NCBI GenBank assembly: GCA_030650495.1
Contig: JAUSEB010000004.1
Span: 1-44,872, forward strand
Direction: 5' to 3'
From: Armatimonadota bacterium
GTDB taxonomy: Bacteria; Armatimonadota; UBA5829; JAUSEB01
DNA: 44,872 bases
Shown: positions 788-44,872 of the stretch, one piece after another
Numbering within the stretch: position 1 is the stretch's first letter
How the letters are laid out: every line of letters starts with the position of its first letter
The notes under the pieces: model-generated
The model's database searches: none
The model's input: only the letters and a program-made list of their open reading frames with translations
Told to the model about the DNA's origin: nothing
Program-made: the position numbers and the translations under genes

Positions 788-854
788 CGGCGCCTTCGGC
801 ACCGGCATCGGCAGCAGGCTACCGATGCAACAGACTTCTAACTTCTAACTTCTA
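788..854 (+). repeat. 44-bp double-hairpin REP-like element (family A, copy 1) followed by (ACTTCTA)x3
   Basis: CGGCGCCTTCGGCACCGGCATCGGCAGCAGGCTACCGATGCAAC at 788-831 recurs at 22781-22824 and, inverted, at 5785-5828; heptamers at 834-854. Confidence 0.85.
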
Positions 855-859
855 AACCC

Positions 860-1522
860 TCAACCCGTCCCCATAAACACCGCTCTCAGCTGTGGCTCAA
901 GATCCGATTCGACAAGCGCTATCACGCTGTCATGCATCTCCAGTTCGGTATTAACATGCGGAATAAGCGCATGATCGTCCCGGACGATTGAAATAATGAG
1001 CGTGTTCGGCGGAAGCCCCAGTTTGCCGATTTCCTTGCCGACCACCGGCGACTCCTCGCCCAAATCGATTTCCACTATCTCGATGTTGCCCCGCTTGAGA
1101 GCGGCGATCGGGAACATATGGTCGGTCTCGATCTGCTGCTCGATCAGATTGAATATTATCTTAGTGCTGCTGACCGTCTCATCTATACCCAAACGTTGGA
1201 AAATCTCCTCGTTTTCGGGGTTATTTACGCGCGCTATGGTTCGCGGCGCTTTGAAGCGATGTTTCGCCATCTGGCAGATCACTAAATTATCTTCATCGTC
1301 TCCGGTAGTCGCGACGACCACGTCCGCCCGCTCCATACCGTACTGTTTCATCGTCCGCACTTCGCATGCATCCCCGCGGACCGCGACTTCGCCCAGTTCC
1401 TCAAACAACTTCTCCGCCCGCCCCCTGTCTTTCTCTATCAGAACGACCTCATGCCCCGCGCTCATGAGACCTTTGGTCAGGTAATAGCCTACCCTGCCGC
1501 CGCCGCCTATTATAATGAACAT
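860..1522 (-). CDS. trkA: TrkA/CeoC-family K+ transport regulatory subunit (RCK_N + RCK_C)
   Basis: Rossmann motif IIGGGGRVG; DVVVATTGDDEDNL; IARVNNP; C-terminal RCK_C (SPVVGKEI..L.LP). Confidence 0.9.
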   Translation of the reverse strand: MFIIIGGGGRVGYYLTKGLMSAGHEVVLIEKDRGRAEKLFEELGEVAVRGDACEVRTMKQYGMERADVVVATTGDDEDNLVICQMAKHRFKAPRTIARVNNPENEEIFQRLGIDETVSSTKIIFNLIEQQIETDHMFPIAALKRGNIEIVEIDLGEESPVVGKEIGKLGLPPNTLIISIVRDDHALIPHVNTELEMHDSVIALVESDLEPQLRAVFMGTG

Positions 1523-1539
1523 CTTCTATCCTCCATACC

Positions 1540-1998
1540 CTAAAAGTTCAACTCGTCTTCTATTTCGCAGTATTCCAACACCGGACGCGGCTCCTTGCCA
1601 AGCAGGAAATCCGTCATCAGACCGGCGCCTATGGAAGTAGTGCACAGCGTCTCGATGCCGAGTTGGTGATAAGCGGTCGCCCGGACGGGATCGTATATTC
1701 TGGCCAAGACTTTCGGCGCTTTGAAGATTTCTTTGGCTATCTGAACCGACATTATATTGGTGTTGTCGCCGTTGGTCACCGCGACAAACGCGTCCGCGGT
1801 TTCTATGCCGGCCTTTTTCAGCACATCCACTTCTGTTCCCGACCCGACAATCGTGCGTATATTGGGGTCAGGCTCGCTGCCCAAACGACGAAAAGAGTCC
1901 GCGTTCCAGTCGATAATCGTCACGCTATGACCTTCACGGGACAACATGCGGGCCATGGTCGAGCCGACTCTCCCACAGCCTAATATGACTACCTTCAT
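1540..1998 (-). CDS. trkA: TrkA/CeoB-family NAD-binding subunit, RCK_N only
   Basis: MKVVILGCGRVG; DAFVAVTNGDNTNI; ARIYDP; ATG at 1998 with GGAGG upstream. Confidence 0.85.
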   Translation of the reverse strand: MKVVILGCGRVGSTMARMLSREGHSVTIIDWNADSFRRLGSEPDPNIRTIVGSGTEVDVLKKAGIETADAFVAVTNGDNTNIMSVQIAKEIFKAPKVLARIYDPVRATAYHQLGIETLCTTSIGAGLMTDFLLGKEPRPVLEYCEIEDELNF

Positions 1999-2061
1999 TA
2001 CTCTACGTCCCTCCGTCAACTTCTCTCACTAGAAATACGATGTTATAAGAAACCTGGTTCC

Positions 2062-2092
2062 AGCTTCGGGGTAAAAAGGTTCCCTAAGCATA
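2062..2092 (-). repeat. 31-bp TATGC-footed hairpin repeat (family B, copy 1)
   Basis: AGCTTCGGGGTAAAAAGGTTCCCTAAGCATA; 30/31 identical to 11282-11312; partial copy at 2428-2450. Confidence 0.8.
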
Positions 2093-2094
2093 CA

Positions 2095-2274
2095 TTAATG
2101 GCGGGTTAACATGATTGCGCGGAATAGCCCATAGATAACAGCCAGCGCGCCGAATACCATGCTCCCGGTCTGGCGTTCCGGCAGGCTGCTTATTATGAGC
2201 AGAATACCCGCTATGATAAGCCCAATGGAAATTATTAACCTGAATTTTCGTAACTGCTCGACGCGATCCGGCAT
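2095..2274 (-). CDS. Small two-helix membrane protein (59 aa)
   Basis: ATG at 2274 with GGAGG RBS and a near-consensus promoter upstream; two hydrophobic segments. Confidence 0.65.
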   Translation of the reverse strand: MPDRVEQLRKFRLIISIGLIIAGILLIISSLPERQTGSMVFGALAVIYGLFRAIMLTRH

Positions 2275-2302
2275 TTTAGCCTCCCTGAGCAAACATCAAC
2301 AG

Positions 2303-2340: not shown

Positions 2341-2372
2341 GGTTGTCGGTTGATGGTTGACGGTTGTCGGTT
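2341..2372. repeat. Heptamer tandem array (GGTTGNN)x4.5
   Basis: ggttgtc ggttgat ggttgac ggttgtc ggtt. Confidence 0.8.
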
Positions 2373-2472: not shown

Positions 2473-2928
2473 TTACGTAAGTGAGATTAAAGTAACGAAT
2501 ATGGCAGTTGTTAACACTGTTGCAATTGCATAAACTTTCAGATGTCTATAATCTCGGCTTTTCTTGAGTTTTACGCCAATGAATGTGCCCCAAACGCCAA
2601 AAGCAACGAACGCCGCGAGAAGCGCAATTAATAGTATGTTATCAGCGGTTTCTGACTCTTGGGCATCATTTGTGAAAGACATAATCGCTGGGCTTGTTAA
2701 GATCGAAAGCATCCAGCCCAAGCATACCGGAACAAAAATCAACTGTGAGGATACAAGGCCAAGTAAAACGCCTGCGCCTGAGGCAAACAGGATGCCCGAT
2801 GCCCAGAATAGACCCGTTTCGATAGCGGAACTGGACCCGGTTGCGACAATCAAAGACATAAACCAGACCCCGCAGGCTACTACGCCGAACACAAGTGCGA
2901 GTAAAAAGCTCAAGATGATCTTACGCAT
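2473..2928 (-). CDS. Hypothetical integral membrane protein
   Basis: 151 aa with about 5 hydrophobic segments; AAAGGAG RBS; follows the UroD-like gene closely. Confidence 0.7.
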   Translation of the reverse strand: MRKIILSFLLALVFGVVACGVWFMSLIVATGSSSAIETGLFWASGILFASGAGVLLGLVSSQLIFVPVCLGWMLSILTSPAIMSFTNDAQESETADNILLIALLAAFVAFGVWGTFIGVKLKKSRDYRHLKVYAIATVLTTAIFVTLISLT

Positions 2929-5587: not shown

Positions 5588-5643
5588 TACGGTATTCTCC
5601 TCACTATCAAATGAATACTTCGATATACCCCGATAATACCCTT

Positions 5644-5790
5644 CGTCGTGCGTTGAGCGTCGTGCGTCGTTCGTAGTGCGTCGACCGTCGTGCGTGGCGC
5701 GTGGCGCGTAGTTCGTCGCGCGTGGTCCGTCGTGCGTGGTCCGTCGAGCGTCGACCGTCGTCCGTCGTTCGTGGTTCGTGGTTCGTTGCT
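5644..5790. repeat. Degenerate heptamer tandem array (CGTNGNN)x21
   Basis: 21 consecutive 7-mers with invariant CGT-N-G and variable positions 4, 6 and 7; no indels. Confidence 0.95.
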
Positions 5791-5828
5791 TCGGTAGCCT
5801 GCTGCCGAAGCCGGCGCCGAAGGCGCCG
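5785..5828 (-). repeat. Family A double-hairpin element, copy 2 (inverted)
   Basis: Reverse complement reads CGGCGCCTTCGGCGCCGGCTTCGGCAGCAGGCTACCGAAGCAAC. Confidence 0.85.
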
Positions 5829-5830
5829 AG

Positions 5831-5869
5831 TCCCCTCTCCCTTGACGGGAGAGGGTTAGGGTGAGGGTG
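5831..5869. repeat. CCCTCTCCC...GGGAGAGGGTTAGGGTGAGGG palindromic repeat
   Basis: Hairpin CCCTCTCCC-TTGAC-GGGAGAGGG plus G-rich tail; related half copy CTCACCCCAACCCTCTCC at 8338-8355. Confidence 0.7.
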
Positions 5870-5879
5870 ATAAAATCAC

Positions 5880-13341: not shown

Positions 13342-13400
13342 GGTTGTCGGTTGAGGGTTGAGGGAAAGCTGTCAGCTGTCAGCTGACAGCTGACAGCTTT
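13342..13400. repeat. (GGTTGNN)x3 followed by the perfect heptamer-built palindrome AGCTGTCAGCTGTCAGCTGACAGCTGACAGCT
   Basis: Palindrome at 13367-13398, extending to 13365-13400. Confidence 0.9.
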
Positions 13401-23977: not shown

Positions 23978-24008
23978 AGCTGTCAGCTGTCAGCTGACAG
24001 CTGACAGC
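23978..24008. repeat. AGCTGTC/AGCTGAC heptamer palindrome
   Basis: 31 of the 32 bp of the palindrome at 13367-13398. Confidence 0.9.
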
Positions 24009-27097: not shown

Positions 27098-27179
27098 CAA
27101 CCAACCCCCGTATCCCCGAGTAGGAGCAAAGCGACGTATCAAGGGGCGGCACAACCTATCGCAAACATCCCACTAACAA

Positions 27180-29933
27180 CTATCGACTATCGACTGAACT
27201 CAGCGCCGCCAATCGCTCCTCCAGCTTCGCCTTCTTCTCCTGAAGCTCCTGCTGGATGCGGCGCTCTTTTTCCACAACCTCAGCAGGCGCCCTTGCAATG
27301 AACTGCTCGTTCGACAGCTTGCCCTCGGTCCTCGAAAGCTCTTTCCCAAGCGCCTCAAGCTCCTGCTCGATCTTCGACAGTTCCTTCTCTACATCGATCA
27401 GACCGGCCACGGGAACGTGCAAATCGAAGTCCATAAAATGCGAGCTGACATAATTCCTCTTCTCGCTGTCGGGCAGAGACTCCGCGAATGTAATCTCCCC
27501 AACCCTTGCCAGCGACTTCACGCCTTCTGAGATAGCCTGAATTCGTTCTCGCACGGCATCAGATGGCGAAGTGACGAGCACGTTGACCGGGCGGCCCGGC
27601 TGCGCGCCCAGTTCAGTCCGCAGATTGCGAATAGCGCGGGTAATCTCCATCATCTCATCCATCTGCTTCTCGGCTGTTTCATTCACCCAAACCGAGTCAG
27701 CCACCGGGAACGGGCGGATCATCAAGCTGTCTCCGCTGTGCGGGATTGCCTGCCAAATCTCTTCGGTGATAAACGGCATAACGGGATGCAGCAGCCGCAT
27801 CGTCGTCTCCAGCACGTGCCAGAGAAGATATTGGACCTGCTTGCGCTCATCGGAAGTATCTCGCAGACGCGGCTTTGCAAGCTCCAAATACCAGTCGCAG
27901 TACTCGCTCCAGATGAACTCATACAGCGCGCGGCAGGCGTCGTCCATATCGTATGCGGCAAACCCCTTGTTGACCGTAGTGACAAGCCTGTTCAAACGGC
28001 TGAGTATCCAGCGGTCTTCCAACCGCAGCTCGAAGGTGGAAAGGCGTATATCCGGGTCTTCGCCCAGATACCAATTCTCGACCCATTTGTGCTCGTTCCG
28101 AACTACCGGAACACCAGGCGGCAGGTGTTCTTCTTCGTGATCCAGGTTCATCAGGACGAAGCGGGAAGCGTTCCAAATCTTATTGCAGAAGTTCCGTATG
28201 ACTTCCACGCGCCCGCCGGAGAATCGCATGTCCTGCCCCTCACCGGCCTGCTGGAGAAGGGCAAATCGAAGCGCGTCCGCGCCGTATTGGTCGATAAGAT
28301 CGAGCGGATCGACCCCCGTGCCCAGCGACTTGCTCATCCTGCGGCCTTCTTCGTTCTGGACCGTCGCGTAGATATAAACGTCGTGGAATGGAATCTCTTT
28401 CAAGAACTCCAGGCTCGTGAAGATCATCCGTGCGACCCACAAATAGATAATATCTCGCGCCGTGACCAACACATTCGTGGGGTAGAAATAGTCGAGATCA
28501 GGCGTCTTCTTAGGCCAGCCGAGAGTTGCGAAAGGCCAAAGAGCTGATGAGAACCACGTATCCAGCACGTCCGGGTCTTGTGTCAGATTCTTGCTACCGC
28601 ATTTAGAACAAACCTCCGGCGCGCTCTTTGCCGCGATATACTCGCCGCAGTCGTCGCACCGCCAGACTGGTATGCGATGCCCCCACCAAAGCTGCCTCGA
28701 TATGCACCAATCCCGGACGTTTTCCATCCAATCCAAGTATAATTTTGTATATCTTTCCGGGATAAACTTGATCTTTCCGCTCTTCACGACATCGATGGCG
28801 GGCTGCGCCAATTCCTTCATCCGGCAGAACCACTGCTCCGAAAGAAGCGGCTCTATTACGGTTTCACAGCGCCTGCAGGTCGCCACCGAAAGCGCATAGT
28901 CGTCAACTCTTGTAAGATAACCCTTGTCGCGCAATTCCTCAACCAGCTTCGCGCGAGCTTCGTAGCGGTCCATACCGGCGTATTTGCCTGCTTCTTCGGT
29001 CATCTTGCCGTCGGGACCAATCACAATCACGCTGTCGAGATTGTGCCGCAGGCCCATCTCGAAGTCGTTGGGGTCATGCGCGGGAGTCGTCTTGACCGCC
29101 CCAGTTCCGAATTCGGGATCGACATAACTGTCATCGAAAATGGGTAGCTTGCGACCGACAATCGGCAGAATTGCATTCTTGCCGACCAGACCCAGATATC
29201 TATCATCTTCAGGGTTCACGGCCACGCCCGTATCGCCGAGCATCGTTTCCGGCCTTGTCGTCGCCACACGGATATTCCCCGTGCCGTCCTCCAGCGGATA
29301 GTCTATATAGTAGAGCTTGCCGTCAATGGCCTCGTATTCGACCTCAATATCGGAAATCGCCGTATGGCAGCGCGGGCACCAGTTGATGACTCGCGCGCCG
29401 CGATAGATATAACCCTTATTGAACAGGCGCACAAACGACTCGATCACCGCGTCGGAATACTGCTCGTCCATCGTGAACCGCTCGCGCTCCCAATCGAACG
29501 AATACCCCATCCGCTTGAATTGATTGAGAATCGTCCCGCCGTAGTGCTCCTTCCACGCCCAAACGCGCTTCAGGAACTCCTCGCGCCCAATATCGTGCCT
29601 GGTCAAGCCCACTTCGGCAAGCTGCTGCTCGACTTTATTCTGAGTAGCAATCCCGGCATGGTCCGTCCCTGGAAGGCACAGAGTCTCATACCCCTGCATC
29701 CGCTTCCAGCGAGTCAGGACATCCTGGATGCTGTAACAAAGCGCATGGCCGATATGCAGCGAGCCTGTCACATTTGGAGGGGGAATAGTTATACAATACT
29801 GCTTCTTCCCCGGCTCAATCTGCGCGGCAAAGTATAACTTTTCCAGCCAAAACTTATACCATTTGTCCTCTACGGTCTTGGGATCATATACCTTCGGAAG
29901 CTGCAACTCATCTCTCTCATTCTCTGTCGCCAA
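27180..29933 (-). CDS. valS: Valine--tRNA ligase
   Basis: PPPNVTGSLHIGHA (HIGH); DHAGIATQ; DWCISRQLWWGHRIP; RMSKSLG (KMSKS); C-terminal coiled coil; TTG start at 29933 after GAGGAG. Confidence 0.97.
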   Translation of the reverse strand: MATENERDELQLPKVYDPKTVEDKWYKFWLEKLYFAAQIEPGKKQYCITIPPPNVTGSLHIGHALCYSIQDVLTRWKRMQGYETLCLPGTDHAGIATQNKVEQQLAEVGLTRHDIGREEFLKRVWAWKEHYGGTILNQFKRMGYSFDWERERFTMDEQYSDAVIESFVRLFNKGYIYRGARVINWCPRCHTAISDIEVEYEAIDGKLYYIDYPLEDGTGNIRVATTRPETMLGDTGVAVNPEDDRYLGLVGKNAILPIVGRKLPIFDDSYVDPEFGTGAVKTTPAHDPNDFEMGLRHNLDSVIVIGPDGKMTEEAGKYAGMDRYEARAKLVEELRDKGYLTRVDDYALSVATCRRCETVIEPLLSEQWFCRMKELAQPAIDVVKSGKIKFIPERYTKLYLDWMENVRDWCISRQLWWGHRIPVWRCDDCGEYIAAKSAPEVCSKCGSKNLTQDPDVLDTWFSSALWPFATLGWPKKTPDLDYFYPTNVLVTARDIIYLWVARMIFTSLEFLKEIPFHDVYIYATVQNEEGRRMSKSLGTGVDPLDLIDQYGADALRFALLQQAGEGQDMRFSGGRVEVIRNFCNKIWNASRFVLMNLDHEEEHLPPGVPVVRNEHKWVENWYLGEDPDIRLSTFELRLEDRWILSRLNRLVTTVNKGFAAYDMDDACRALYEFIWSEYCDWYLELAKPRLRDTSDERKQVQYLLWHVLETTMRLLHPVMPFITEEIWQAIPHSGDSLMIRPFPVADSVWVNETAEKQMDEMMEITRAIRNLRTELGAQPGRPVNVLVTSPSDAVRERIQAISEGVKSLARVGEITFAESLPDSEKRNYVSSHFMDFDLHVPVAGLIDVEKELSKIEQELEALGKELSRTEGKLSNEQFIARAPAEVVEKERRIQQELQEKKAKLEERLAALSSVDSR

Positions 29934-30046: not shown

Positions 30047-30055
30047 GGCAAATAC

Positions 30056-30378
30056 AAAAAGCCCCACTCGACCCGCACAAGGACGAGAGGGGCGCAAATG
30101 CTCCTTCGTGGTACCACCTTGATTCTCCCGACAAATCGGGACTCGTTTTCGCTATAACGGGCTTACCCGGCGAAGGTTACATGGAAGAGTGTAGTTAGTT
30201 GTTAGTTGTTAGTGGCTAGTAAATACTAGCAACTAACTACTAGCTACTAACAACTTATCTTTCACCTTCGCGGCTCCGGGGCGACCTTCGGTCGGGGCTT
30301 CACAGCCGGGAGACTCACACCAAACGCTCCCTCTCTGAGGCCGGCTTGCCGCCTACTCCTCCCCATCACTGCCTTTGC
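30056..30378 (-). ncRNA. T-box riboswitch leader (Val-specific) with intrinsic terminator
   Basis: T-box AAGGTGGTACCACG (30107-30120); stem I motifs GAGTA, AGAGA, GGTGTGA; specifier GAAG-GTC-G (GTC at 30283-30285 = Val); CCGTTA of stem IIA/B; terminator GCCCC..GGGGC-TTTTT (30056-30093). Confidence 0.92.
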
Positions 30379-30419: not shown

Positions 30420-32237
30420 TCAACCGGCAGCTGACAGTTGACAGCTTTTCCCATCTGATACTTCACCAACCGAGATAGCGCCTCGCACCGAGTTGCCTAT
30501 GATTATTTCATCAGCGGCGCTCAACTCTTCAACAGAAATCGACCTCTCTACCCCGCCCGTTTCTCGCAGATAGTCCGCGCGCCAGACACCGGGCAGAAGA
30601 CCGTCTCCTATCGGAGGAGTGATCCATTCATCGCCTATCCGCACGAAGATGTTCGTAATAGACCCCTCAGTCAAATTCCCCTTTTCGTTCTGGAAAATAA
30701 CTTCATAAAACCCCTGCTCGACCGCCTGCTCCCGCGCCTCGTTGTATAGCTTTCGCTCAGTCGTTTTGTGGAAAAGAAGCCGGTCTCGCGAGTCCGTGCG
30801 CCGCGATGATAGCAGTATACGGACCGGCTCCGCCGGAGCCGCCGCTATGGGACGCGAATTCAAGCGCAGTTTACCCTTCTCGTCCAATTCCATCCGAACA
30901 ACCAAGGGAAGGACGCCGCACGATCGGACGAATTTCCGCGGCGCAACTCTGGCGCAGGCCTTTTCGAATGGGAAATCCCAATACTCCGCCGACTTCGCCA
31001 GCCGTTCAATATGCTCGTTTTCGTATAAATATACTCCTGATTCCGTGAGCAGCATAGTCTCAAACAGCCTAAGATCGGGAATCAAAGAAAAAGCAAAGCT
31101 GGATTTGAGTAACGTCTCCTCATACTCGCTCTGGGGGTCAGAGTCCCATACTATTCCTGAACCTATACCGAGGTCGAATTCGCCGCCCTTATGAACCAGC
31201 GTGCGAATAGCTATATTGCAAGTGAAGTCACCTCCGGGGGCAAAAATGCCGATTGTCCCCGTGTAAACGCCCCTCGGTTCGCGCTCCAAATCACGGATTA
31301 TCTCCATAGTCCTTCGCTTTGGCGCGCCGGTGATAGATGACCCCGGAAAAGTAGCCGCCATTATTTCCCTGAAAGAAACTCCCTCCCTGAGAACCCCGGT
31401 CGCGGCGCTGGTCATCTGCCACACGCTGCGATACTTCTCCGTCGCGAACATCTCAGGAACGTGAACAGTCCCGTAACGGCAGATACGTCCGAGGTCGCTG
31501 CGCATCATATCGAGAATCATCACGTTCTCGGCGCGGTCCTTTTGGCTCTCCACAAGCTCGCGAGCCAAATCTACATCTTCCTCCAATGTGCGGCCGCGGC
31601 GGCGGGTTCCCTTCATCGGGCGAGTATCCAGAATGTCCCCGCGCTTTTGCAGAAACATCTCCGGTGATAAGCTGAGAATTTGCGCCTCCCCTAAATTCAG
31701 ATAGGCCGCGTAAGGAACCGGATGAGAACGCGCAAGAGCCAAAAAGTAGCCAAGCGGATCGACTTCCGCCGAGAACCGGGCGTGGCAAGTGTAGTTGACT
31801 TGATAGGTGTCTCCCGATGCGATAAGCTCTTTGATTCGGGCAATAGCAGCGTTAAAGTCATCAACTGTGACATTCAGGCTCACATCGGAATTGCCGATAC
31901 TCACGGCGTCATCAATCAGACGCAGTTTGTCTTGACGAACCGCCAGCACATTGGACGCTGGATAGCAGCCCAACCAGACAAGAGGCGTCTGACCATTTGG
32001 CTGATGCGTCGAGAGGTCGAAAGCCCGTCCCGCTTCATAAGATAAATATCCGGCGACGTAATGGCCACGGCGGATTTCCGCTTCCGCCTCATCAAGCAGT
32101 CCGGACACAAGTTCGGGATCATCAGTCGAGAGTACGCGCGCGGGATCGTGGAGAAGCAGGGCTTCGCAGCCCGGAAGCCACGTATCCTCTCCCCATAACA
32201 AAACACCGCCCGGATTTTGGAGCAAATTAGAAATCAT
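30420..32237 (-). CDS. pabB: Aminodeoxychorismate synthase component I fused to an ADC lyase (aminotransferase class IV) domain
   Basis: GYLSYEAG; GDTYQVNYT; SPEMFL; RPMKGT; KDRAENVMILD; FPGSSITGAPK; GIGSGIVWDS; C-terminal HKTTER, TEGSITNIF, GLLPGVWR, NSVRG. Confidence 0.92.
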   Translation of the reverse strand: MISNLLQNPGGVLLWGEDTWLPGCEALLLHDPARVLSTDDPELVSGLLDEAEAEIRRGHYVAGYLSYEAGRAFDLSTHQPNGQTPLVWLGCYPASNVLAVRQDKLRLIDDAVSIGNSDVSLNVTVDDFNAAIARIKELIASGDTYQVNYTCHARFSAEVDPLGYFLALARSHPVPYAAYLNLGEAQILSLSPEMFLQKRGDILDTRPMKGTRRRGRTLEEDVDLARELVESQKDRAENVMILDMMRSDLGRICRYGTVHVPEMFATEKYRSVWQMTSAATGVLREGVSFREIMAATFPGSSITGAPKRRTMEIIRDLEREPRGVYTGTIGIFAPGGDFTCNIAIRTLVHKGGEFDLGIGSGIVWDSDPQSEYEETLLKSSFAFSLIPDLRLFETMLLTESGVYLYENEHIERLAKSAEYWDFPFEKACARVAPRKFVRSCGVLPLVVRMELDEKGKLRLNSRPIAAAPAEPVRILLSSRRTDSRDRLLFHKTTERKLYNEAREQAVEQGFYEVIFQNEKGNLTEGSITNIFVRIGDEWITPPIGDGLLPGVWRADYLRETGGVERSISVEELSAADEIIIGNSVRGAISVGEVSDGKSCQLSAAG

Positions 32238-32320: not shown

Positions 32321-32390
32321 AGCTGTCAGCTGACAGGTGACAGCTTTTCCATCTGCGTTTATCTGCGCTTATCTGCGTTAATCTGCGTTC
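32321..32390. repeat. Partial AGCTGTC palindrome followed by a decamer array (ATCTGCGYTN)x4
   Basis: agctgtcagctgacaggtgacagct (32321-32345); atctgcgttt atctgcgctt atctgcgtta atctgcgttc (32351-32390). Confidence 0.8.
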
Positions 32391-34837: not shown

Positions 34838-34840
34838 TGT

Positions 34841-36109: not shown

Positions 36110-36149
36110 CTCTTCATTCTCCTTATAAGACGGACTAGGGTATTGGATT

Positions 36150-36224
36150 AACCCCCTGTAGTCCCCCTTCTAAAGGGGGACGGTATGGACTCCCCTCCTT
36201 ACGAAGGAGGGGCTGGGGGAGGTT
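36150..36224 (+). repeat. Family C double-hairpin repeat (copy 3) between clpP and clpX
   Basis: CCCCCTTCTAAAGGGGG + CTCCCCTCCTTACGAAGGAGGGGCTGGGGGAGGTT. Confidence 0.9.
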
Positions 36225-36236
36225 AATCTCTAACGC

Positions 36237-36824
36237 TTAGCCTTCGGTTTTCTCAAGTACCGTGTCTACTATTCCATATTCGCGCGCTTCTTCCGCCGAC
36301 ATGTAATAGTCGCGGTCAATATCTTTTCCGACCTTCTCCACAGTCTGGCCGGTGTGCTTCGCAAGTATCTCCGTCAGCAGCGTTTTATACCTGAGCACTT
36401 CCCTCGCCTGGATGTCTATATCGGAAGGCGTGCCCTGGAATCCCGCGCTGCCCTGGTGGATCATTATTCTCGCGTTCGGAAGCGCGTTTCTCTTGCCTTT
36501 AGCGCCGCCGGACAGAAGCACCGCTGCCATGCTCATGGCTTCGCCAATGCACCACGTCGCTATGTCTGGCTTGATGAACTGCATCGTGTCGTAGATCGCC
36601 AGTCCCGCGCGCACGTACCCGCCTGGGCAGTTGATGTAGAGATCGATGTCCTTATCGGGGTCTTCTTTCGCCAAGAACAGCATCTGCGCAACGATCAAAT
36701 TGGAGATGTCTGTGTCGATCGGCGTTCCGATGAAGATGATCCGATCTTTCAGCAAGCGGGAGTATATATCGTAGGCGCGCTCGCCGCGCGCCGTTTGTTC
36801 CACTACCATTGGTATTAGAGCCAC
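36237..36824 (-). CDS. clpP: ATP-dependent Clp protease proteolytic subunit
   Basis: [14 protein letters not shown]; YINCPGG; catalytic AMSMA and IMIHQ; DRDYYMS. Confidence 0.97.
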
Positions 36825-38128: not shown

Positions 38129-38261
38129 CGCATTCTCCTACTTAAATGTCTTGAACGATTATTCAAACAAAATAGGGTATGACATATAGGATAATTCAGC
38201 GGCTATTGGAAAACACATCCACTGCCTATCCTTTATCCCATACCCTGGTCTAATGTAAGAA

Positions 38262-38336
38262 TGGAGCGGGAGACGGGATTCGAACCCGCGACATCCACCT
38301 TGGCAAGGTGGCGTTCTACCACTGAACCACTCCCGC
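38262..38336 (-). tRNA. tRNA-Gly(GCC)
   Basis: GCGGGAG...CCACC-TT-GCC-AA-GGTGG...GGTTCGAATC...CTCCCGC-TCCA; CCA encoded. Confidence 0.97.
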
Positions 38337-38338
38337 GT

Positions 38339-38482
38339 TTAGATGTTAGAGGTTAGAAGATAGAAGATATCTTTCCCTAACCTCTTACCTCTAATTCCTA
38401 ACCCCTAGACTTTCAAAGTTAGATGTTAGAAATCAGAAACAGTTCGTTCTAACCTCTAACCTCTAACTTCTAGCCTCTAGAC
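38339..38482. repeat. Two heptamer-built hairpins, (TTAGANN)n...(CTAACNN)n, in the Leu-Gly tRNA spacer
   Basis: ttagatg ttagagg ttagaag atagaag / ctaacct cttacct ctaattc ctaaccc, then ttagatg ttagaaa tcagaaa / ctaacct ctaacct ctaactt ctagcct. Confidence 0.85.
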
Positions 38483-38566
38483 TGGTGGGCGAGAGGAGAG
38501 TCGAACTCCTACGCCTCGCGGCACTAGGTCCTAAGCCTAGCGTGTCTGCCATTCCACCACTCGCCC
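38483..38566 (-). tRNA. tRNA-Leu(TAG)
   Basis: GGGCGAG...CTAGG-CT-TAG-GA-CCTAG; long variable arm; GTTCGAC; CCA end. Confidence 0.97.
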
Positions 38567-38568
38567 GG

Positions 38569-38655
38569 TTTAGATGTTAGATGTTAGAATAGACCGTCAT
38601 TCCGAGCGAAGCGAGGAATCTGCTTTTCTAACTCCTAACTTCTAACTTCTGGACT
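38569..38655. repeat. Heptamer hairpin with a CGTC-type REP half in its loop (Lys-Leu tRNA spacer)
   Basis: ttagatg ttagatg ttagaat - CGTCATTCCGAGCGAAGCGAGGAATCT - ctaactc ctaactt ctaactt. Confidence 0.8.
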
Positions 38656-38658
38656 GAC

Positions 38659-38734
<76 letters not shown>

Positions 38735-38759
38735 ACGCCCCCGCTCTTAGTCGGTAGAT

Positions 38760-38858
38760 ATTATACCGACTCATTCAGCCGGCCGTCAAGCCTTAGCCGC
38801 GTCAAGCCCTCACAACCAAGAGCAAAATCATTATGTCAAATGGTATGTGATTTGTCAA
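38760..38858 (-). promoter_or_regulatory. Tandem sigma70 promoters of the tRNA-tig operon
   Basis: TTGACA-N17-CATAAT (38858-38830) and TTGACG-N18-TATAAT (38789-38760). Confidence 0.65.
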
Positions 38859-38863
38859 ATAAA

Positions 38864-38998
38864 GTATCAGTTCAGTTCTGTGGGATCGAACTGCCTCAAT
38901 ACACGTCACCCTGAACTCGATTCAGGGTCTATTCCTTCGTAGAATAGATGCTGAATCAAGTTCAGCATGACGTAATTCCCACAGAACTGAACTCTTAC
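38864..38998. mobile_element. 135-bp MITE with IS66-like ends and 8-bp target-site duplication
   Basis: TIRs GTATCAGTTCAGTTCTGTGGGA / GTAAGAGTTCAGTTCTGTGGGA (inner 17 bp perfect); direct repeat CAAATAAA at 38856-38863 and 38999-39006. Confidence 0.85.
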
Positions 38999-39021
38999 CA
39001 AATAAAAAGCCAACTGGAGAA

Positions 39022-39053
39022 AGCTGTCAGCTGTCAGCTGACAGCTGACAGCT
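39022..39053. repeat. Perfect 32-bp AGCTGTC/AGCTGAC palindrome
   Basis: Identical to 13367-13398. Confidence 0.9.
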
Positions 39054-39067
39054 AAATACACTCCAAG

Positions 39068-39095
39068 AAGGACATAAGCCCCCCATTGTTGAACT
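39068..39095 (+). promoter_or_regulatory. Putative alternative-sigma promoter AAGGACAT-N15-GAACT
   Basis: Same spacing as 13431, 19089 and 20263. Confidence 0.5.
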
Positions 39096-39122
39096 TCTTG
39101 TGCGGCGGAGGTGTCATAACTG

Positions 39123-40211
39123 ATGGCAAAACTATACGGTAAGAACTACACGAAAGATGAACTACTGAAACGAGTAGGCGATATATCACAGATAGCCGAG
39201 GCTCGAAGCGTTGAACTGCAAAATGGAAACGAGGCCGGATTGCGCGCTATCGAGTTCCGCACCGGGTCCGGGTTCAATTTCACCGTCCTTGCCGACAGAG
39301 GCATGGACATTTCCTCTTGCGACTACAGCGGGCAATCGCTCTCGTGGCAGTCTTCTACAGGCAATGTCGCGCCGGAATTTTACGAGCCGGAAGGTCTCAA
39401 ATGGCTTAGGACCTTCTACGGCGGCCTTGTGTGCACCTGCGGCGTGACTTATGCGGGAGCGCCATGTGTCGATGAAGGTGAAGAGCTTGGCCTCCACGGT
39501 CGATTCTCTCATATTCCGGCAAAGAATGTCTGTGTCGATAGCGAATGGCAGGGCGATGACTACGTGATTTGGGCGCAGGGTAAGATTCGCGAAACCCGCG
39601 TATTCGGCGAAAACATCGTCGTCACCAGGAAGATATGGACCAAACTCGGCGAAAATAGATTCTGGCTGCGCGACATAGTCGAAAACATCGGCTTCGACAC
39701 CGTTCCCCACATGATGCTTTACCACATCAACGGCGGCTTTCCGGCTGTTGACGCCGATTCCGAACTCCTCTCCCCCACCCTCTCCGCCAAACCCAGGGAC
39801 ACGGAAGCGGAAGTGGAGAAAGAACTGTATAACAAATTCCCAGCGCCTTCCGTGGGTTTCAAAGAGCGGGTTTACTATCACGACATGGCGACGGACAACG
39901 AAGGCGCGGTGTACACAGCATTAGTCAATAAGAATTTCAACAACGGCCAGGGCTTCGGCTTCTACGTGAAATATATCAAGTCCCAATTGCCGCGATTCAT
40001 CGAGTGGAAAATGAACTGCGCCGGGACGTACGTTGTCGGCATGGAGCCTGCCAACTGCCTGGTCGAAGGTCGCGACAAAGACCGCGCCAGGGGAATTCTC
40101 CAGTTCCTCCAGCCCGGCGAAAAACGCGAATACGAGCTAGAAATCGGCGCGCTGCCGTCAAATAATGAGATCGCCGAACTCGAAGAGCGGATACGAAAAA
40201 TCAGACCCTGA
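39123..40211 (+). CDS. Aldose 1-epimerase family protein (DUF4432)
   Basis: FTVLADRGMDI; WLRTFYGGLVCTCG; GLHGR; MLYHIN; YVVGMEPAN; GGAGG RBS. Confidence 0.85.
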   Translation: MAKLYGKNYTKDELLKRVGDISQIAEARSVELQNGNEAGLRAIEFRTGSGFNFTVLADRGMDISSCDYSGQSLSWQSSTGNVAPEFYEPEGLKWLRTFYGGLVCTCGVTYAGAPCVDEGEELGLHGRFSHIPAKNVCVDSEWQGDDYVIWAQGKIRETRVFGENIVVTRKIWTKLGENRFWLRDIVENIGFDTVPHMMLYHINGGFPAVDADSELLSPTLSAKPRDTEAEVEKELYNKFPAPSVGFKERVYYHDMATDNEGAVYTALVNKNFNNGQGFGFYVKYIKSQLPRFIEWKMNCAGTYVVGMEPANCLVEGRDKDRARGILQFLQPGEKREYELEIGALPSNNEIAELEERIRKIRP

Positions 40212-40228
40212 ACAGCGGAAAGTGAGAA

Positions 40229-41578
40229 ATGGAAATGGCAATCACAAATGAACACAGATTGGGATTAGGATTAGGGTGGGCGTTTACAGCTCTGCTTGTC
40301 GCGTTGCTGGCGCTGGCGCTATGCGTCCCATTGTGGGCAGCAACAGCCGTCGAAGATCAATCGTATTCGCGGGCGACCCCGGAGCAAATGAAATGGTGGA
40401 GCGAGGCGCGCTTCGGGTTGTTCGTCCACTGGGGGCCGATAAGTCTGAAGGGGACGGAGATCGGTTGGTCGCGCGGCAAGTACGGTGGCCGGGGTCTGGA
40501 GCAGGGCGGAGGCATTATACCGGTTGAAGAGTATGATAATCTCTACAAGCAATTCAACCCGGTGAAATTCGATCCCGACGAATGGGTCCGCATTGCCAAG
40601 GCCGCCGGGATGAAATATCTTGTCTTCACTACTAAACACCACGACGGCTTCTGCGAGTTCGACAGCAAACTGACCGACTACAAGATCACGAACTCGCCTT
40701 ACGGCAAGGACATCGTGGCGCAGCTTGCCAAAGCCTGTTACAAAGCCAAGTTGCCTCTGGGATTCTACTATTCGCCGCTGGACTGGCATCATCCCGATTA
40801 CTTCACAGCCAACCATGCTCGGTACATCGAGTATATGCACGGCCAATTGCGCGAGTTGTGCACGAACTACGGAAAGATCAGTATAATCTGGTTCGATGGG
40901 CTTTTTTCGACCGCGGAGGACATGGATTCGCCGCGCATGATCAAGATGATCCGCGAATTGCAACCGGGAATTCTGATAAACAACCGAGCGGGACTGCCGG
41001 CGGATTTCGGCACACCCGAACAGGAGATTGGCGGTTTCGACAACACCCGGCCATGGGAGAGTTGCATCACTATTGGGAACAGGTGGTCGTGGAAGCCGAA
41101 CGACAACATCCAGTCGCTCAAAGAATGCATCGACACATTGGCGCTCTGCGCCGGCGGCGATGGCAATCTGCTGCTGAATGTTGGCCCTATGCCGGATGGG
41201 CGCATCGAAGACCGACAGGTCGAGAGGCTCAAGGAGATCGGCGCTTGGCTGAAGAAGAACGGCGAGAGCATCTATGCGACCCATGGCGGGCCGTTCATGC
41301 CGACCAAGAACATCGCCAGCACATACAAGAGCAAGACCGTCTTCCTGCACATTCTTAAATGGCCGGAAGGCGCCGATGAGATCAAGCTGCCAGGTATTGG
41401 GAAGAAAATAGTGTCCGCCAGACTCTTGACCGGTGGCAAAGTGAACGTGGAGCAGCGCGCCGATTGCATTCAGGTAATGATCAAGCCGGAAGATCGAAAC
41501 GCGTTGGACACCATAGTCGCGCTCAAGCTGGACGGACCGGCATCGGATATCGAACCGGTTCGGTTAACCACGGATTAA
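40229..41578 (+). CDS. Alpha-L-fucosidase (GH29), exported
   Basis: ARFGLFVHWG; AGMKYLVFTTKHHDGF; GFYYS..DW; IWFDG; INNR; PEQ; WESC; GNLLLNVGP; N-terminal signal. Confidence 0.93.
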   Translation: MEMAITNEHRLGLGLGWAFTALLVALLALALCVPLWAATAVEDQSYSRATPEQMKWWSEARFGLFVHWGPISLKGTEIGWSRGKYGGRGLEQGGGIIPVEEYDNLYKQFNPVKFDPDEWVRIAKAAGMKYLVFTTKHHDGFCEFDSKLTDYKITNSPYGKDIVAQLAKACYKAKLPLGFYYSPLDWHHPDYFTANHARYIEYMHGQLRELCTNYGKISIIWFDGLFSTAEDMDSPRMIKMIRELQPGILINNRAGLPADFGTPEQEIGGFDNTRPWESCITIGNRWSWKPNDNIQSLKECIDTLALCAGGDGNLLLNVGPMPDGRIEDRQVERLKEIGAWLKKNGESIYATHGGPFMPTKNIASTYKSKTVFLHILKWPEGADEIKLPGIGKKIVSARLLTGGKVNVEQRADCIQVMIKPEDRNALDTIVALKLDGPASDIEPVRLTTD

Positions 41579-41615
41579 CGCAAATAATCCCTATGCTTCC
41601 TTCGGGACGAAAAAC

Positions 41616-41735
41616 GGGAGTGTTCAAAAACCGTAGCCCCGGCCCTTGTGGCCGGTCGGCGATAGTGAATCTACGCTCAGCAGACGGGGCACAAGGCCCC
41701 GAGCTACAGGTATATAGGACTTTTTGAACATTCCC
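41616..41735. mobile_element. 120-bp MITE with 15-bp TIRs and 5-bp target-site duplication
   Basis: GGGAGTGTTCAAAAA / TTTTTGAACATTCCC (14/15); AAAAC duplicated at 41611-41615 and 41736-41740. Confidence 0.85.
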
Positions 41736-41849
41736 AAAACGAGTCCCGAAGTATAGCCTTTCGTGTTTTTAATATTTCGTGCTTTCGTGATTCATGAACT
41801 CCCCATGGATGCTATAATATCCTAGCTCATCAGGAAAGGACGAACTAAT

Positions 41850-43130
41850 TTGCGAATCAAATCATTCATCTCTCTCGTCATTATTCTTGCATTTGCCGCA
41901 AGCATGGCCTGGGCCAAATCGAGCGATAAATCCGCTCCATTTGGCGCGGTCAGCGTGAAATCCTTCGGCGCCAAAGCCGACGGCAAGACCGACGACACCG
42001 CCGCATTCCAGAAAGCCATAGATTCTCTTAAAACTAAAGGCGGAACAGCTTTCGCGCCGGCGGGAGCCTATCTCATCGCCGGATCTCTGACTCTGTATCC
42101 CGGCGTGACTCTAAGCGGAGTATGGGAGGCCCCGCATCTGTCCATCAACAAGGGGACTGTCATCCTTGCCACCGGCGGCGAAGGAGATGAGAACGGTAAG
42201 CCTTTGGTCAACATGGACTGGAACACTTGCGTAAAAGGCCTGACCGTCATTTACCCAAACCAAAAGGCTAACAAGATCACGCCTTACCCCTGGACCTTCA
42301 TCGGCAAAGGAATGCACTGCACCATCGAGAACGTTACCCTGGCCAATTCATACAAAGCCATCGCTTTCCCGACCTGGAACGAAGTGCATTACATCAAGAA
42401 CGTCTACGGCTGCCCCCTCAAAGAAGGCATTTTCATAGACAACTGCACCGACATCGGTAGGATCGAAGACGTTCACTTCAGCATCAACTACTGGACTCGC
42501 GCCGAAGCCCCTTACGTCGTACCGAAAGAAGATCACGACAAGCTGGAAAACTTTATTGTGAACAATCTGGTCGCTTTCCGTATTGGCAGAACCGACTGGG
42601 AGTATATGACCAACTGCTTCAGCATACTTGCCAAAATTGGCTACCATTTCGTAAAAACCGAAAAGGGCAACGGAAACGTGGTTCTGACCCAATGCGGCGC
42701 TGATGGAACAGCCATCGCCGTTCAGGTTGATTCCTGCCAGCCGCACGCGGGCATTGCCTTCGTAAACAGCCAGTTTATGTGCAAAGTAGTTATTACGGAC
42801 ACGAACAACGGTCCGGTGAAGTTCTCCAACTGCGGCTTCTGGCCAACAGCCTTGGTAGAAGGCCAGGCGATTCTCGAAGGATATTCCACGGTCACATTCT
42901 CCACTTGCCACTTCCTCGAATGGGGAAGGAAAAACCCAAAAGCCGTTTGCATCGTAGCAAAACACGGTTCGCTAATAGTCACGGGCTGCGACTTCATGGC
43001 CGGAAAGCCACAGATAGAACTTGGACCGGACGTCAGTTCCGCTGCGATATTCGGCAATCTCTTGCGCGGCGGTCAGAAGATCATCAACAACAGCAAGGGT
43101 AACATTCAAATCGGGCTGAATATCGATTGA
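41850..43130 (+). CDS. Exported right-handed beta-helix protein (Pectate_lyase_3/GH28-related N-terminus)
   Basis: Signal peptide; SVKSFGAKADGKTDDTAAFQKAI...GG....PAG.Y motif; beta-helix periodicity. Confidence 0.8.
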   Translation: MRIKSFISLVIILAFAASMAWAKSSDKSAPFGAVSVKSFGAKADGKTDDTAAFQKAIDSLKTKGGTAFAPAGAYLIAGSLTLYPGVTLSGVWEAPHLSINKGTVILATGGEGDENGKPLVNMDWNTCVKGLTVIYPNQKANKITPYPWTFIGKGMHCTIENVTLANSYKAIAFPTWNEVHYIKNVYGCPLKEGIFIDNCTDIGRIEDVHFSINYWTRAEAPYVVPKEDHDKLENFIVNNLVAFRIGRTDWEYMTNCFSILAKIGYHFVKTEKGNGNVVLTQCGADGTAIAVQVDSCQPHAGIAFVNSQFMCKVVITDTNNGPVKFSNCGFWPTALVEGQAILEGYSTVTFSTCHFLEWGRKNPKAVCIVAKHGSLIVTGCDFMAGKPQIELGPDVSSAAIFGNLLRGGQKIINNSKGNIQIGLNID

Positions 43131-43139
43131 GTTGGAAGA

Positions 43140-43157
43140 AGCTGTCAGCTGTCAGCT
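43140..43157. repeat. Half AGCTGTC array
   Basis: agctgtc agctgtc agct; a (CAACNNN)-type array lies at about 43328-43354. Confidence 0.7.
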
Positions 43158-43353
43158 TCCCTGATGGCGCGGGATATGTATCCCGTGCCTCTTCCCCAGG
43201 GCATTTGCCCCCAAAGATAAGTTACACGAAAGATATTACTAATCGGTTATTAGAAGATTTGCCAGGGACAAATGTCCGAGGAAAAGCGCCGGGGATGAAT
43301 ATCCCCGGCGATCAGAATTACTCCCTAAACACTCAACCCTCAACCAACAACCC

Positions 43354-44409
43354 CTATTGCAATCCCGCCGGCATTTCCGCGAGCTTCGCTCGCACATCCA
43401 GCCGCTTGCCGTCTCTGGCGATTTTGAACGTGATTGTATCCCCGACTTCGATCTTCCTGATCGCCTCCTGCAATTCGTCGCCTTCGACCACAGGCTTGCC
43501 GTTTACGTGTGTAATAATATCGCCTTTTTGAATCCCGGCCTTAGCCGCCGGACTGTTGGGTTCGACCTCGCCTACTATCAACCCTTGTTTGACGGGGAGG
43601 TCGTATGCCTGCGCGATCTCCGGGGTGATGCTCCCATACGCAATACCGACCCAAGGGATAATCACCCGCCCCTTCTCCAAAACGCTTTTGAGTATGGCCG
43701 CCACCGAGTTCGACGGAACGGCAAACCCCAAACCAGCGCCCGGAGCCCTGGCGATTATAGTGTTCAGGCCAATCACTTGCGCGCGATTATTGCACAGCGG
43801 GCCGCCGGAATTCCCCGGATTGATAGCCGCGTCCGTTTGGATGAGGTTGTTCAAAGCGAGTCCGGGCACGTCTCTACCCGTCGCGCTTATGACCCCCACC
43901 GTCACCGTCCGCTGTAAGCCCAGGGGATTCCCTATTGCGATTGCCGTCTCGCCAACTCTCAACCTGTCGGAGTTCCCAAGCGCGGCCGCCGGAAGATTTC
44001 TCTGATCGATTCTCAGTATCGCGATGTCGGCCCGCGGATCGCTTCCGAGCACGCGCCCCGTCACCATCTTGCCGCTTGCCAGAGTAACGCGGACCGTGCT
44101 GTGACCCTCGATCACATGACGATTTGTGACTATATAACCATCCGGCCTGACAATGACGCCGGAACCGAGTCCCGTTGTCTCCTCGCCCAGACCTAATAGA
44201 CTCTCCGTAGTAGTCGTCACCTGCACAACCGCCGGTCCGACACGGTCAACCACGTCGGGAATCGACATAACGACCCCCGCCGCCGGAGCCACGATCCGCA
44301 TTGTGCTGACCGGCTTATTCACAGGACGCTGCGCCTGAACCACGTGATACCCGCCTATTCCCAACAAAAACCCAAGGATCAAGGCCAAAGTCACTTTGCG
44401 CCCGTTCAT
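43354..44409 (-). CDS. htrA: HtrA/DegP-like trypsin serine protease with one PDZ domain
   Basis: GSGVIV..DGYIVTNRHV; DIAILRI; IGNPLGL; IQTDAAINPGNSGGPL; PDZ SPAAKAGIQKGDII. Confidence 0.93.
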   Translation of the reverse strand: MNGRKVTLALILGFLLGIGGYHVVQAQRPVNKPVSTMRIVAPAAGVVMSIPDVVDRVGPAVVQVTTTTESLLGLGEETTGLGSGVIVRPDGYIVTNRHVIEGHSTVRVTLASGKMVTGRVLGSDPRADIAILRIDQRNLPAAALGNSDRLRVGETAIAIGNPLGLQRTVTVGVISATGRDVPGLALNNLIQTDAAINPGNSGGPLCNNRAQVIGLNTIIARAPGAGLGFAVPSNSVAAILKSVLEKGRVIIPWVGIAYGSITPEIAQAYDLPVKQGLIVGEVEPNSPAAKAGIQKGDIITHVNGKPVVEGDELQEAIRKIEVGDTITFKIARDGKRLDVRAKLAEMPAGLQ

Positions 44410-44487
44410 ATAAACTCCCCCTAACCTATTGCATTACCCGTTGCCTCTCTACCCTGCGTTGGTATACACAAAACGCCCGGCTCTTTG

Positions 44488-44522
44488 CGTGGCGCGTGGA
44501 CCGTCGTGCGTCGTCCGTTGTA
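44488..44522. repeat. Second (CGTNGNN) heptamer array, x5
   Basis: cgtggcg cgtggac cgtcgtg cgtcgtc cgttgta. Confidence 0.8.
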
Positions 44523-44529
44523 CGTGACT

Positions 44530-44555
44530 GGGTGGCTGTTTCCGAACAGCCACCC
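44530..44555. other. Perfect hairpin (terminator- or REP-like)
   Basis: GGGTGGCTGTT-TCCG-AACAGCCACCC, 11-bp stem. Confidence 0.55.
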
Positions 44556-44872
44556 TAACACCAAAGCCGGATTTCCGAATCCGATATCTCTCTTATTTCA
44601 GTTATCAAAAAAGCAATTCGTTTCAACCCGTTTTTAAGGGTAAATTTGAGCTTCCTGCGAAACGATTTCACGCTCAAGTTGAGCGTGGAGATAATTCGTT
44701 TTGGTGACTTTTTTATTTTCCGCCTCTCTCCCTCGTGAAAAGGCAAATACGGGTTGTTTGTTGATAGTTGGCAGTTGTTGGTTTTCTTGACTCATCGCTC
44801 GTTACTCGCCACTGATTTTTTCTCTCCCATGTACATGTACCTGTCATGGGGCATTTTGACATCGGTACTGGC

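Follow-up and report, generated by a model that had tools for sequence, protein, structure and literature searches.

Heptanucleotide repeat arrays in an Armatimonadota genome from groundwater: their units, their place at gene ends and their hairpins

The window studied here is contig JAUSEB010000004.1 of the Armatimonadota assembly GCA_030650495.1, a stretch of 44,872 nt in which tandem arrays of seven-nucleotide units recur with many different sequences, and the question it raises is how one period, and possibly one internal spacing of G residues, comes to be shared among them. A preliminary description of this DNA took the units for unrelated sequences with a common G-N2-G-N3 skeleton, compared them with the short tandemly repeated repetitive sequences (STRR) of filamentous cyanobacteria, and judged slippage alone a poor explanation, suggesting that a dedicated mechanism generates them or that some protein follows a 7-nt register in single-stranded DNA or RNA. 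Having analysed the whole assembly (3.59 Mb in 464 contigs, 53% G+C, the window being one contig; G000 where genomes are compared), we put at about 0.5 the probability that the arrays are known bacterial heptanucleotide repeats of the STRR or long simple sequence repeat (SSR) class, which draw on one pool of units, form modular intergenic stem-loop elements and owe their state to slippage, copying and selection at the RNA level.

Abundance and placement of period-7 arrays

Tandem Repeats Finder (TRF) reported 1233 arrays of period 7 genome-wide, compared with 11, 97, 135, 289, 245, 110 and 120 for periods 5, 6, 8, 9, 10, 11 and 12. A dinucleotide-preserving shuffle in 1-kb blocks left 62 arrays at period 7, 12 at period 6 and 67 at period 8; period 7 is thus enriched over neighbouring periods and over shuffled DNA alike, as the preliminary description had anticipated. 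The arrays are spread over 201 of the 229 contigs of at least 5 kb, and by our own ORF-based gene calls (open reading frames, ORFs; 2915 genes, 85% coding) 1053 of the 1233 (85%) fall outside called ORFs, with a density of 2.0 per kb in intergenic and 0.06 per kb in coding DNA. About one intergenic region in three (598 of 1576) carries at least one array, and the density is lower in divergent intergenic regions (1.6 vs 2.2-2.5 per kb). In their excess of tandem 7-nt units and their non-coding bias the arrays belong with the bacterial heptanucleotide long SSR (STRR-like) class. Copy number peaks at 3.5-5 units (680 of 1233 arrays) and falls steeply above 5, and sizes are discrete and specific to each family. 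A period-7 array lies within 60 nt of 41 of the 928 contig ends of G000, and contigs of the best metagenome run end on either side of the repeat block at 38290-39040; array counts are therefore lower bounds.

Some neighbouring observations concern other periods and short palindromes. Period-10 arrays (245 genome-wide) are about twice as frequent as in shuffled DNA (110) and 65% intergenic; period-8 arrays are 61% intergenic. CAGCTG occurs 587 times within the period-7 arrays (1.45% of the genome) and 173 times elsewhere, where 958 copies are expected. CTAG and other palindromes that contain AGCT or CTAG are avoided in a similar manner.

The cyanobacterial frame of the preliminary description had to be given up. 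No match to the photosynthetic reaction centre family Photo_RC was found in the genome, which is 95.5% complete; Rho, not detected in a Synechococcus control, is present; and the HIP1 octamer is seen 23 times against 68 expected. The host is a non-photosynthetic bacterium whose genome was assembled from groundwater. Protein comparisons gave a mixed picture of its affinities: ClpX had hits of only 58-66% identity spread over many phyla, the top cluster for trigger factor is mostly Armatimonadota (14 members with a known phylum), and a second protein pointed to Acidobacteriota/Planctomycetota.

A pool of related units

The 1228 arrays with a seven-letter consensus reduce to 142 distinct units once rotation and strand are collapsed, the commonest being ACAGCTG (240 arrays), AACTTCT (110), AACCCTC (73) and AGCGATG (59). 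Two G residues at a circular distance of 3 on one strand are found in 72% of the 142 units, as against 60% when the letters are shuffled within units (none of 500 shuffles reached the observed value); the share is 85% vs 64% for units with at least three arrays and 90% vs 62% when weighted by arrays. Since a random heptamer of matching composition already shows this distance in 60% of cases, the enrichment of the 3/4 spacing is real yet modest. Free alignment of phase and strand for the 58 units seen at least twice gave R-N-N-G-T-T-R, that is, G-T-T-R-R-N-N, with 5.05 bits against 4.27 +/- 0.11 in 30 shuffles (maximum 4.49). Two conserved G positions do hold in phase-aligned units, as first described; the G-N2-G-N3 pattern gives this consensus in a thinner form.

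Two of the seven consensus positions are free and two are only purine. The strand is C-poor and G+T-rich, and 45% of arrays lack C or lack G on one strand, compared with 2% of random 28-nt intergenic segments. The T-R-R triplet of the consensus is mostly TAG or TGA, and a stop triplet is found on one strand or both in 76% of recurrent units, compared with 57% of shuffled ones (the observed value was reached in 0 of 1000 shuffles; 91% vs 62% by arrays); units of periods 6 and 8-11 show no such excess. GGG is carried only by some families (AACCCTC, 73 arrays; AACACCC, 33; ACCCATC, 33); the commonest units have isolated G, and the arrays do not fit the G-quadruplex heptamers, whose arrays hold at least four runs of three or more G.

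Nor are the units unrelated, as had been supposed. Of 1193 indel-free arrays, 730 (61%) combine two or more variants of the unit in register; neighbourhood within arrays links 22 of the 30 commonest units into a single component; and, in a test independent of TRF, 53 of the 58 recurrent units fall into a single network of one-letter substitutions with 100 links, as against 41.5 +/- 6.0 in shuffles. The shared network and the mixed arrays suggest that common descent accounts for much of the shared skeleton. In DNA sampled from array-rich genomes of the same order, period 7 is the dominant period in G001, G023, G011 and G033 alike, and the G-T-T core is present in 73% of arrays in G001 but 5% in G023, 28% in G011 and 32% in G033. 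As the core is not kept in these last three, the skeleton is a lineage trait and not a universal register. By comparison of units, then, the common G spacing looks mostly inherited and not reached independently.

Part of the array population was also copied rather than grown in place, since 335 of the 1228 arrays share their exact sequence with at least two others, among them two palindromes with 56 copies each and a 30-nt array with 24. Altogether 877 of the 1228 sequences are distinct; with 12-nt flanks included 1216 are, and none recurs three times.

Across 41 genomes a four-unit G-T-T-R-R pattern gave 220 hits in G000, 157 in G001, 115 in G017, 86 in G023, 53 in G018 and 49 in G011, and no hits in 18; the congeners G016 and G017 differ as 0 to 115. 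The reversed-pattern control also matches such arrays in another register and is not a clean null.

Gene ends, hairpins and the arrays of the window

Arrays were oriented by their G-rich strand and are called sense when it runs in the direction of the upstream gene. Sense arrays begin a median of 11 nt past the stop of that gene, and 261 of 509 sense arrays, compared with 57 of 505 antisense ones, lie within -25..+10 nt of a stop codon. The stop codon itself is overlapped by 124 sense arrays, and in 95 of these it is in register with the array's own T-R-R triplets, so that 95 ORFs end on the repeat; arrays that start after the stop show no phase preference. In G001, from a sister genus of the same family, the stop is overlapped by 14 of 23 sense and 0 of 15 antisense arrays. 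A stop triplet is present on the G strand of 79-93% of units in oriented arrays, independent of the distance to the ORF, and is therefore a property of the unit pool and not of local selection. Local selection for stop codons as the cause of the skeleton is ruled out on this ground, and a stop-codon origin is also contradicted by the commonest palindromic family, whose 5' arm has no stop.

The sequence beyond the G strand tends to fold. In 606 clusters, 33% of the 50-nt 3' flanks of the G strand have a minimum free energy of -15 kcal/mol or lower, compared with 9% of the 5' flanks (Wilcoxon p 2.5e-16). The 3' flanks hold recurrent dispersed hairpin modules, four of which we defined (122, 44, 246 and 444 copies). 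The module GTCATTCCG...GGAATCTGC, with 246 copies genome-wide, often forms inverted pairs ~100 nt apart, in the manner of miniature inverted-repeat transposable elements (MITEs), sometimes lies between array arms, and also stands next to an array, downstream of lon, in G017, a genome of a different family in the same order. When hairpins were clustered by their loops, a single cluster of 101 formed through shared modules.

Opposed arrays no more than 200 nt apart have a strict order: the G/T-rich arm is 5' and the C/A-rich arm 3' in 155 pairs and the reverse in 6; in each of these six the two arrays belong to separate elements, set apart by a tRNA, a gene-sized spacer or other sequence. The palindromic AGCTG family has its T-units ahead of its A-units 140 times and behind them twice, and module M3 has a G array on its 5' side in 23 cases (0 reversed) and a C array on its 3' side in 17 (0 reversed). 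For the array-pair elements the median fold z is -5.5. Complementarity between the two arms is ~80%, compared with 64% for random partners, and the arm lengths are uncorrelated (r -0.06). Both array edges are sharp, in-register identity outside dropping to 0.22-0.28, the random level, so that decay of old units gives no direction of growth. Sampling of DNA from other array-rich relatives yielded 12 opposed pairs, which divide 9 vs 3. GGGAATC arrays were seen in 33 of 101 genomes around a Stenotrophomonas record, and exact 14-nt opposed arms up to 30 nt apart (longer gaps were not searched) numbered 0 in either order in five Xanthomonadaceae-type genomes, four of which are the richest with hits on both strands.

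Taken together, an element follows the ORF stop with a G/T arm, then a loop or module, and last a C/A arm. The G/T strand starts at the stop of the neighbouring ORF or within ~10 nt after it, often supplying that stop, and runs toward a hairpin, which beyond the G/T arm consists of a dispersed GC-rich module or of a complementary C/A-rich array.

In the window, 22 of 39 TRF rows have period 7, and arrays are present at the positions named in the preliminary description, the last two (~44488 and ~44753) being degenerate. The arrays and neighbouring repeats are listed below, with the strand where assigned.

834..855, minus strand: heptamer array ACTTCTA (plus-strand letters; the G-rich strand is minus) x 3.1, 4 nt past the stop of the TrkA-like ORF 860-1522 (-) (TRF, ORFs, Pfam)
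2341..2372, plus strand: GGTTGAC x 4.6, intergenic between ORF 1540-2019 (-) and ORF 2473-2928 (-) (TRF)
5642..5786, plus strand: CGTCGTG x ~18, the longest array of the window; periods 14 and 28 also scored; TRF rows 5644 and 5763
13349..13398, plus strand: GGTTGAG x 2.3 with an AGCTGAC-type palindromic array x 4.6 immediately behind it, between divergent genes (TRF rows 13349 and 13367)
18330: TRF row of period 7 (TRF)
23978..24008: AGCTGTC/AGCTGAC palindromic array, 4.4 units long and separated by 6 nt from the stop of ORF 24015-24740 (-)
27179..27195, minus strand: ACTATCG x 2.4, overlapping the stop codon of the valyl-tRNA synthetase (ValRS) ORF 27180-30134 (-) (TRF, ORFs, Pfam)
30194..30255, minus strand: opposed heptamer array pair forming a hairpin, inside the T-box leader stem loop of the ValRS gene (TRF rows 30194 and 30225; Rfam alignment)
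30428..30446: CAGCTGA x 2.7, overlapping the 3' end of ORF 30420-32237 (-)
32321..32345: AGCTGAC-type palindromic array, downstream of lon (32405-34837, -)
32351-32389: period-10 array, 3.9 x ATCTGCGTTT, between the array 32321..32345 and the lon stop
38339..38479: two array hairpins, G/T arm then C/A arm, between the tRNA genes 38265-38336 (-) and 38486-38566 (-)
38570..38650: array hairpin between the tRNA genes 38486-38566 (-) and 38662-38734 (-)
39022..39053: perfect 32-nt palindrome (AGCTGTC)2(AGCTGAC)2AGCT, ~70 nt upstream of ORF 39123-40211 (+)
43140..43157, plus strand: AGCTGTC x 2.6, 9 nt past the stop of ORF 41850-43130 (+)
43323..43353, minus strand: CCCTCAA (+), that is TTGAGGG (-), x 4.4, abutting the stop codon of the HtrA-like ORF 43354-44409 (-)
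44488..44520, plus strand: degenerate CGTNGNN array, below TRF score 30, seen in the sequence by eye
44752..44785, plus strand: degenerate GTTGNNN array, below TRF score 30, seen in the sequence by eye

Arrays abut or overlap the stops of the window's ORFs that end at 860, 24015, 27180, 30420, 43130 and 43354. On the 3' side of the longest array, dispersed GC-rich hairpin modules occupy 5790-5870. Six period-7 rows fall within 38339-38650, and the arms of the hairpin at 38570..38650 flank one copy of the module GTCATTCCG...GGAATCTGC (38590-38625).

Two sites place array hairpins inside RNA. The T-box leader of the ValRS gene (30076-30378, -) scores 98 bits against a gathering score of 93 in the Rfam alignment, barely above threshold because a repeat hairpin is inserted in its stem loop: the pair at 30194-30255 corresponds to an insertion of ~81 nt in the loop (-43.1 kcal/mol, z -6.5). 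Upstream of tig, array hairpins occupy the spacers between three tRNA genes (38265-38734), those of 38339..38479 folding at -56.9 kcal/mol (z -5.5). The same tRNA spacers hold array hairpins with different loops in G001 and are 12-20 nt long and array-free in G016 and G017. The position of arrays in a T-box stem loop and in tRNA spacers indicates that their hairpins are tolerated in transcribed, structured RNA.

Genes of the window include TrkA, MotA/B, an ECF sigma factor, tig-clpP-clpX-lon, ValRS and glycoside hydrolases. The clpP-clpX spacer (36109-36237) holds different dispersed hairpin and heptamer modules in each array-rich genome compared (here, G001, G011 and G018), and it is simple in G016 and G017.

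Competing explanations and known repeats

If the arrays are indeed heptanucleotide repeats kept in stem-loop elements, slipped-strand mispairing would add and remove units 7 nt at a time, and the 7-nt loops so formed would probably be too large for the MutS/MutL repair present in this genome; arrays and modules would be copied between loci as well. Selection at the RNA level may then hold arrays at ~4-5 units with the G/U-rich arm transcribed first. Such an arm would close all three reading frames and make a poor Rho substrate, and the C-rich arm, paired as soon as it is made, would never be exposed to Rho.

Several results sit badly with this account. The copy-number distribution is non-geometric, unlike what free slippage is expected to give, and no insertion or deletion of 7 nt was seen among the contigs of the three groundwater-metagenome runs (one study) that were compared, although contigs drop rare variants. 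Patchiness among congeners hints at a discrete determinant. Transcription of the arrays is deduced from their position inside a T-box and between tRNA genes, gene ends depend on our own gene calls, and, because arrays have been copied, counts such as 155:6 and 140:2 are not independent events. In the abundant AGCTGTC/AGCTGAC family the 5' arm lacks both a stop triplet and G/C asymmetry, so the arguments from an early stop and from Rho fail to explain its 140:2 polarity. Finally, array hairpins are absent from the 29 terminator-like sites in 22000-41999. Some AGCTG palindromes are followed by only ~3 T, and a classical intrinsic-terminator role for array hairpins is not supported. The view that slippage alone does not suffice is supported in part, the strongest arguments for something more being the non-geometric sizes with their peak at 3.5-5, the strict arm polarity and the on/off distribution among congeners, all hard to obtain from free slippage.

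The strongest argument against a dedicated system is twofold: none of the four gene families tested (Y1 HUH, RVT_1, CSD and MutL) tracks the arrays, and the consensus drifts from relative to relative; the earlier proposal of a dedicated generator or 7-nt reader is accordingly without support from co-occurrence, all statements of gene absence being limited by genome incompleteness. MutL_C was found in 39 of 41 genomes, G000 included, and the two without it are less than 70% complete.

In the first alternative the arrays serve as binding sites for a protein that follows single-stranded RNA or DNA with a 7-nt step, such as a cold-shock domain (CSD) protein with one domain per heptamer, which by coating the G/U arm would control hairpin formation. 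The fixed period, the preferred size of ~4-5 units and a G/U-rich strand that is always made first would all follow; arrays of Xanthomonas and Nostoc (PMC4692102) and of Geobacter are likewise reported to have about four units, and work cited in MacGregor 2015 (PMC4679880) has B. subtilis CspB binding heptamer repeats with one protein per heptamer. G000 has three CSD matches, but the domain occurs in 35 of 41 genomes whatever their array load and was not found in G011 and G033, which are array-rich and incomplete. A reader would also have to accept a unit with two of seven positions free and two only purine, and a core that differs among related rich genomes, and we regard it as unlikely.

A further step down in likelihood, and in our view doubtful, is an origin of the arrays as arms of, or appendages to, small non-autonomous mobile elements resembling MITEs or REP/REPINs, with insertion next to gene ends and a periodicity taken from the founder elements. 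The recurrent exact arrays (two palindromes at 56 + 56 copies and the 30-nt array at 24), the fixed module grammar, the 246 copies of GTCATTCCG...GGAATCTGC with their inverted pairs and their recurrence beside an array in G017, and the tRNA spacers filled with arrays in G000 and G001 and short and array-free in G016 and G017 speak for it. Of the marks of a MITE, inverted arms are seen; the relatives are too diverged for empty sites to be aligned. Against it stand the 877 distinct sequences among 1228 arrays, which become 1216 with 12-nt flanks and none seen three times, and the distribution of the Y1 HUH transposase, the REP mobiliser (PF01797). Its matches in G000 are marginal (26.7 and 22.4 bits), it has no match in the rich genomes G017 and G006, and it matches strongly in the array-free G007 and G009; this family does not track the arrays.

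We give still less credence to the broader proposal that the rule of G/T arm 5' and C/A arm 3' is the footprint of how bacterial heptamers in general are made, by telomere-like extension of 3' ends at breaks or stalls, or read, by a single-stranded DNA or RNA binder with 7 nt per subunit that decides on hairpin folding; if true, either version would explain the twenty-year-old puzzle of why 7 is favoured across phyla. Least likely of all is a generator, dedicated or linked to repair, that extends 3' ends at breaks, gaps or stalled forks near hairpins, the extended strand being G/T-rich and so giving polarity on both strands: near-absolute polarity (155:6 and 140:2; M3 23:0 and 17:0), sharp boundaries on both sides (0.22-0.28 outside), arms that at ~80% complementarity and r -0.06 look like two separate additions, and patchiness among congeners speak for it, but no enzyme was found (reverse transcriptase RVT_1, PF00078, has no match in the six rich genomes G017, G018, G011, G006, G012 and G035, and Y1_Tnp does not track), copied founder elements may inflate the polarity counts, the few pairs sampled in other rich relatives stand at 9 vs 3, and in the five Xanthomonadaceae-type genomes no close pairs (exact 14-nt arms, gaps up to 30 nt) were found in either order.

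Comparison with described repeats places the arrays in familiar company. Among long simple repeats, heptamers are the most frequent in many bacteria, and slippage of a polymerase with a 7-nt footprint has been proposed (accounts in PMC4679880 and PMC4692102). Rehm et al. 2015 (PMC4692102) describe GGGAATC in Xanthomonas and GGGGA(C/T)T in Nostoc PCC 7120, with the same gene-end rule as here; these are rare between divergent genes, prefer four units and are of unknown function. The arrays here share with them period 7, the intergenic bias, the gene-end rule, the deficit between divergent genes, the size of about four units and the inverted pairs. They differ in that the unit pool is G-T-T-R-R-N-N and most units have isolated G, which makes G-quadruplex formation impossible in these, and in that 79-93% of oriented arrays have a stop triplet on the G strand, which the published GGGAATC, by inspection, lacks. 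Strict polarity and the link to dispersed modules are likewise found here and are not described for the Xanthomonas and Nostoc heptamers in the accessible part of that paper.

MacGregor 2015 (PMC4679880) reports TAACTGA direct repeats in marine Beggiatoaceae, Cyanobacteria and Bacteroidetes. They resemble the present arrays in being intergenic (2-6 copies there), in their patchy spread with no known mechanism of transfer and in the G-T-T-A core on the other strand of TAACTGA, and that paper considers cold-shock, S1 and CsrA proteins as candidates for reading them. However, there the A-A-C strand is sense and lies just upstream of start codons, while here the G-T-T strand is sense and lies just after stops; related heptamers are rarely repeated there, and here dozens of variants are. 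Geobacter metallireducens is reported to carry a four-heptamer element in 49 copies. With the cyanobacterial STRR and the general heptamer excess (Mrazek 2007, as relayed in PMC4679880 and PMC4692102) the arrays share tandem heptamers, many per genome and of several unit types, with an unclear origin; unlike the heterocystous cyanobacteria of STRR sensu stricto, the host here has no reaction-centre gene, has Rho and shows no HIP1 excess. High-copy intergenic hairpins past gene ends and mosaics of modules recall REP, BIME and REPIN elements (PMC3116915, PMC3733652), but 7-nt periodicity is not in the definition of these as given in the text available, and they depend on RAYT (a Y1 HUH protein), which does not track the arrays here.

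Neither heptamer arrays in a lineage like this one nor the arm-polarity rule turned up in our searches of open-access text. The best-supported position is that the class is already known and that the host and the arrangement are new. What goes beyond the cited papers, as far as their accessible text shows, is the hairpin polarity, the 95 ORFs that end on array stops, the size peak at 3.5-5, the hairpins in the T-box and tRNA spacers and the patchiness among congeners. This genome, which lies outside the usual hosts, carries heptamer arrays at an unusual density; any mechanism must explain one unit pool, starts at stop codons, sizes of 4-5 units, strict polarity and an on/off distribution within a genus. 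For annotation it matters that at least 95 ORFs end on a stop triplet supplied by the repeat; 41 of the 928 contig ends lie near arrays.

Two minor observations concern relatives. The array-rich, incomplete genome G033 has ~59 matches to the Y1_Tnp model at 23-27 bits, in frames of ~170-180 aa on many contigs, which form a large paralogous family. In G038, a genome of the same class that is otherwise array-poor, G-T-T-G-A-T-G and G-T-T-G-A-C-G repeats occur at G038:C1:264960-265714 in blocks ~170-200 nt apart.

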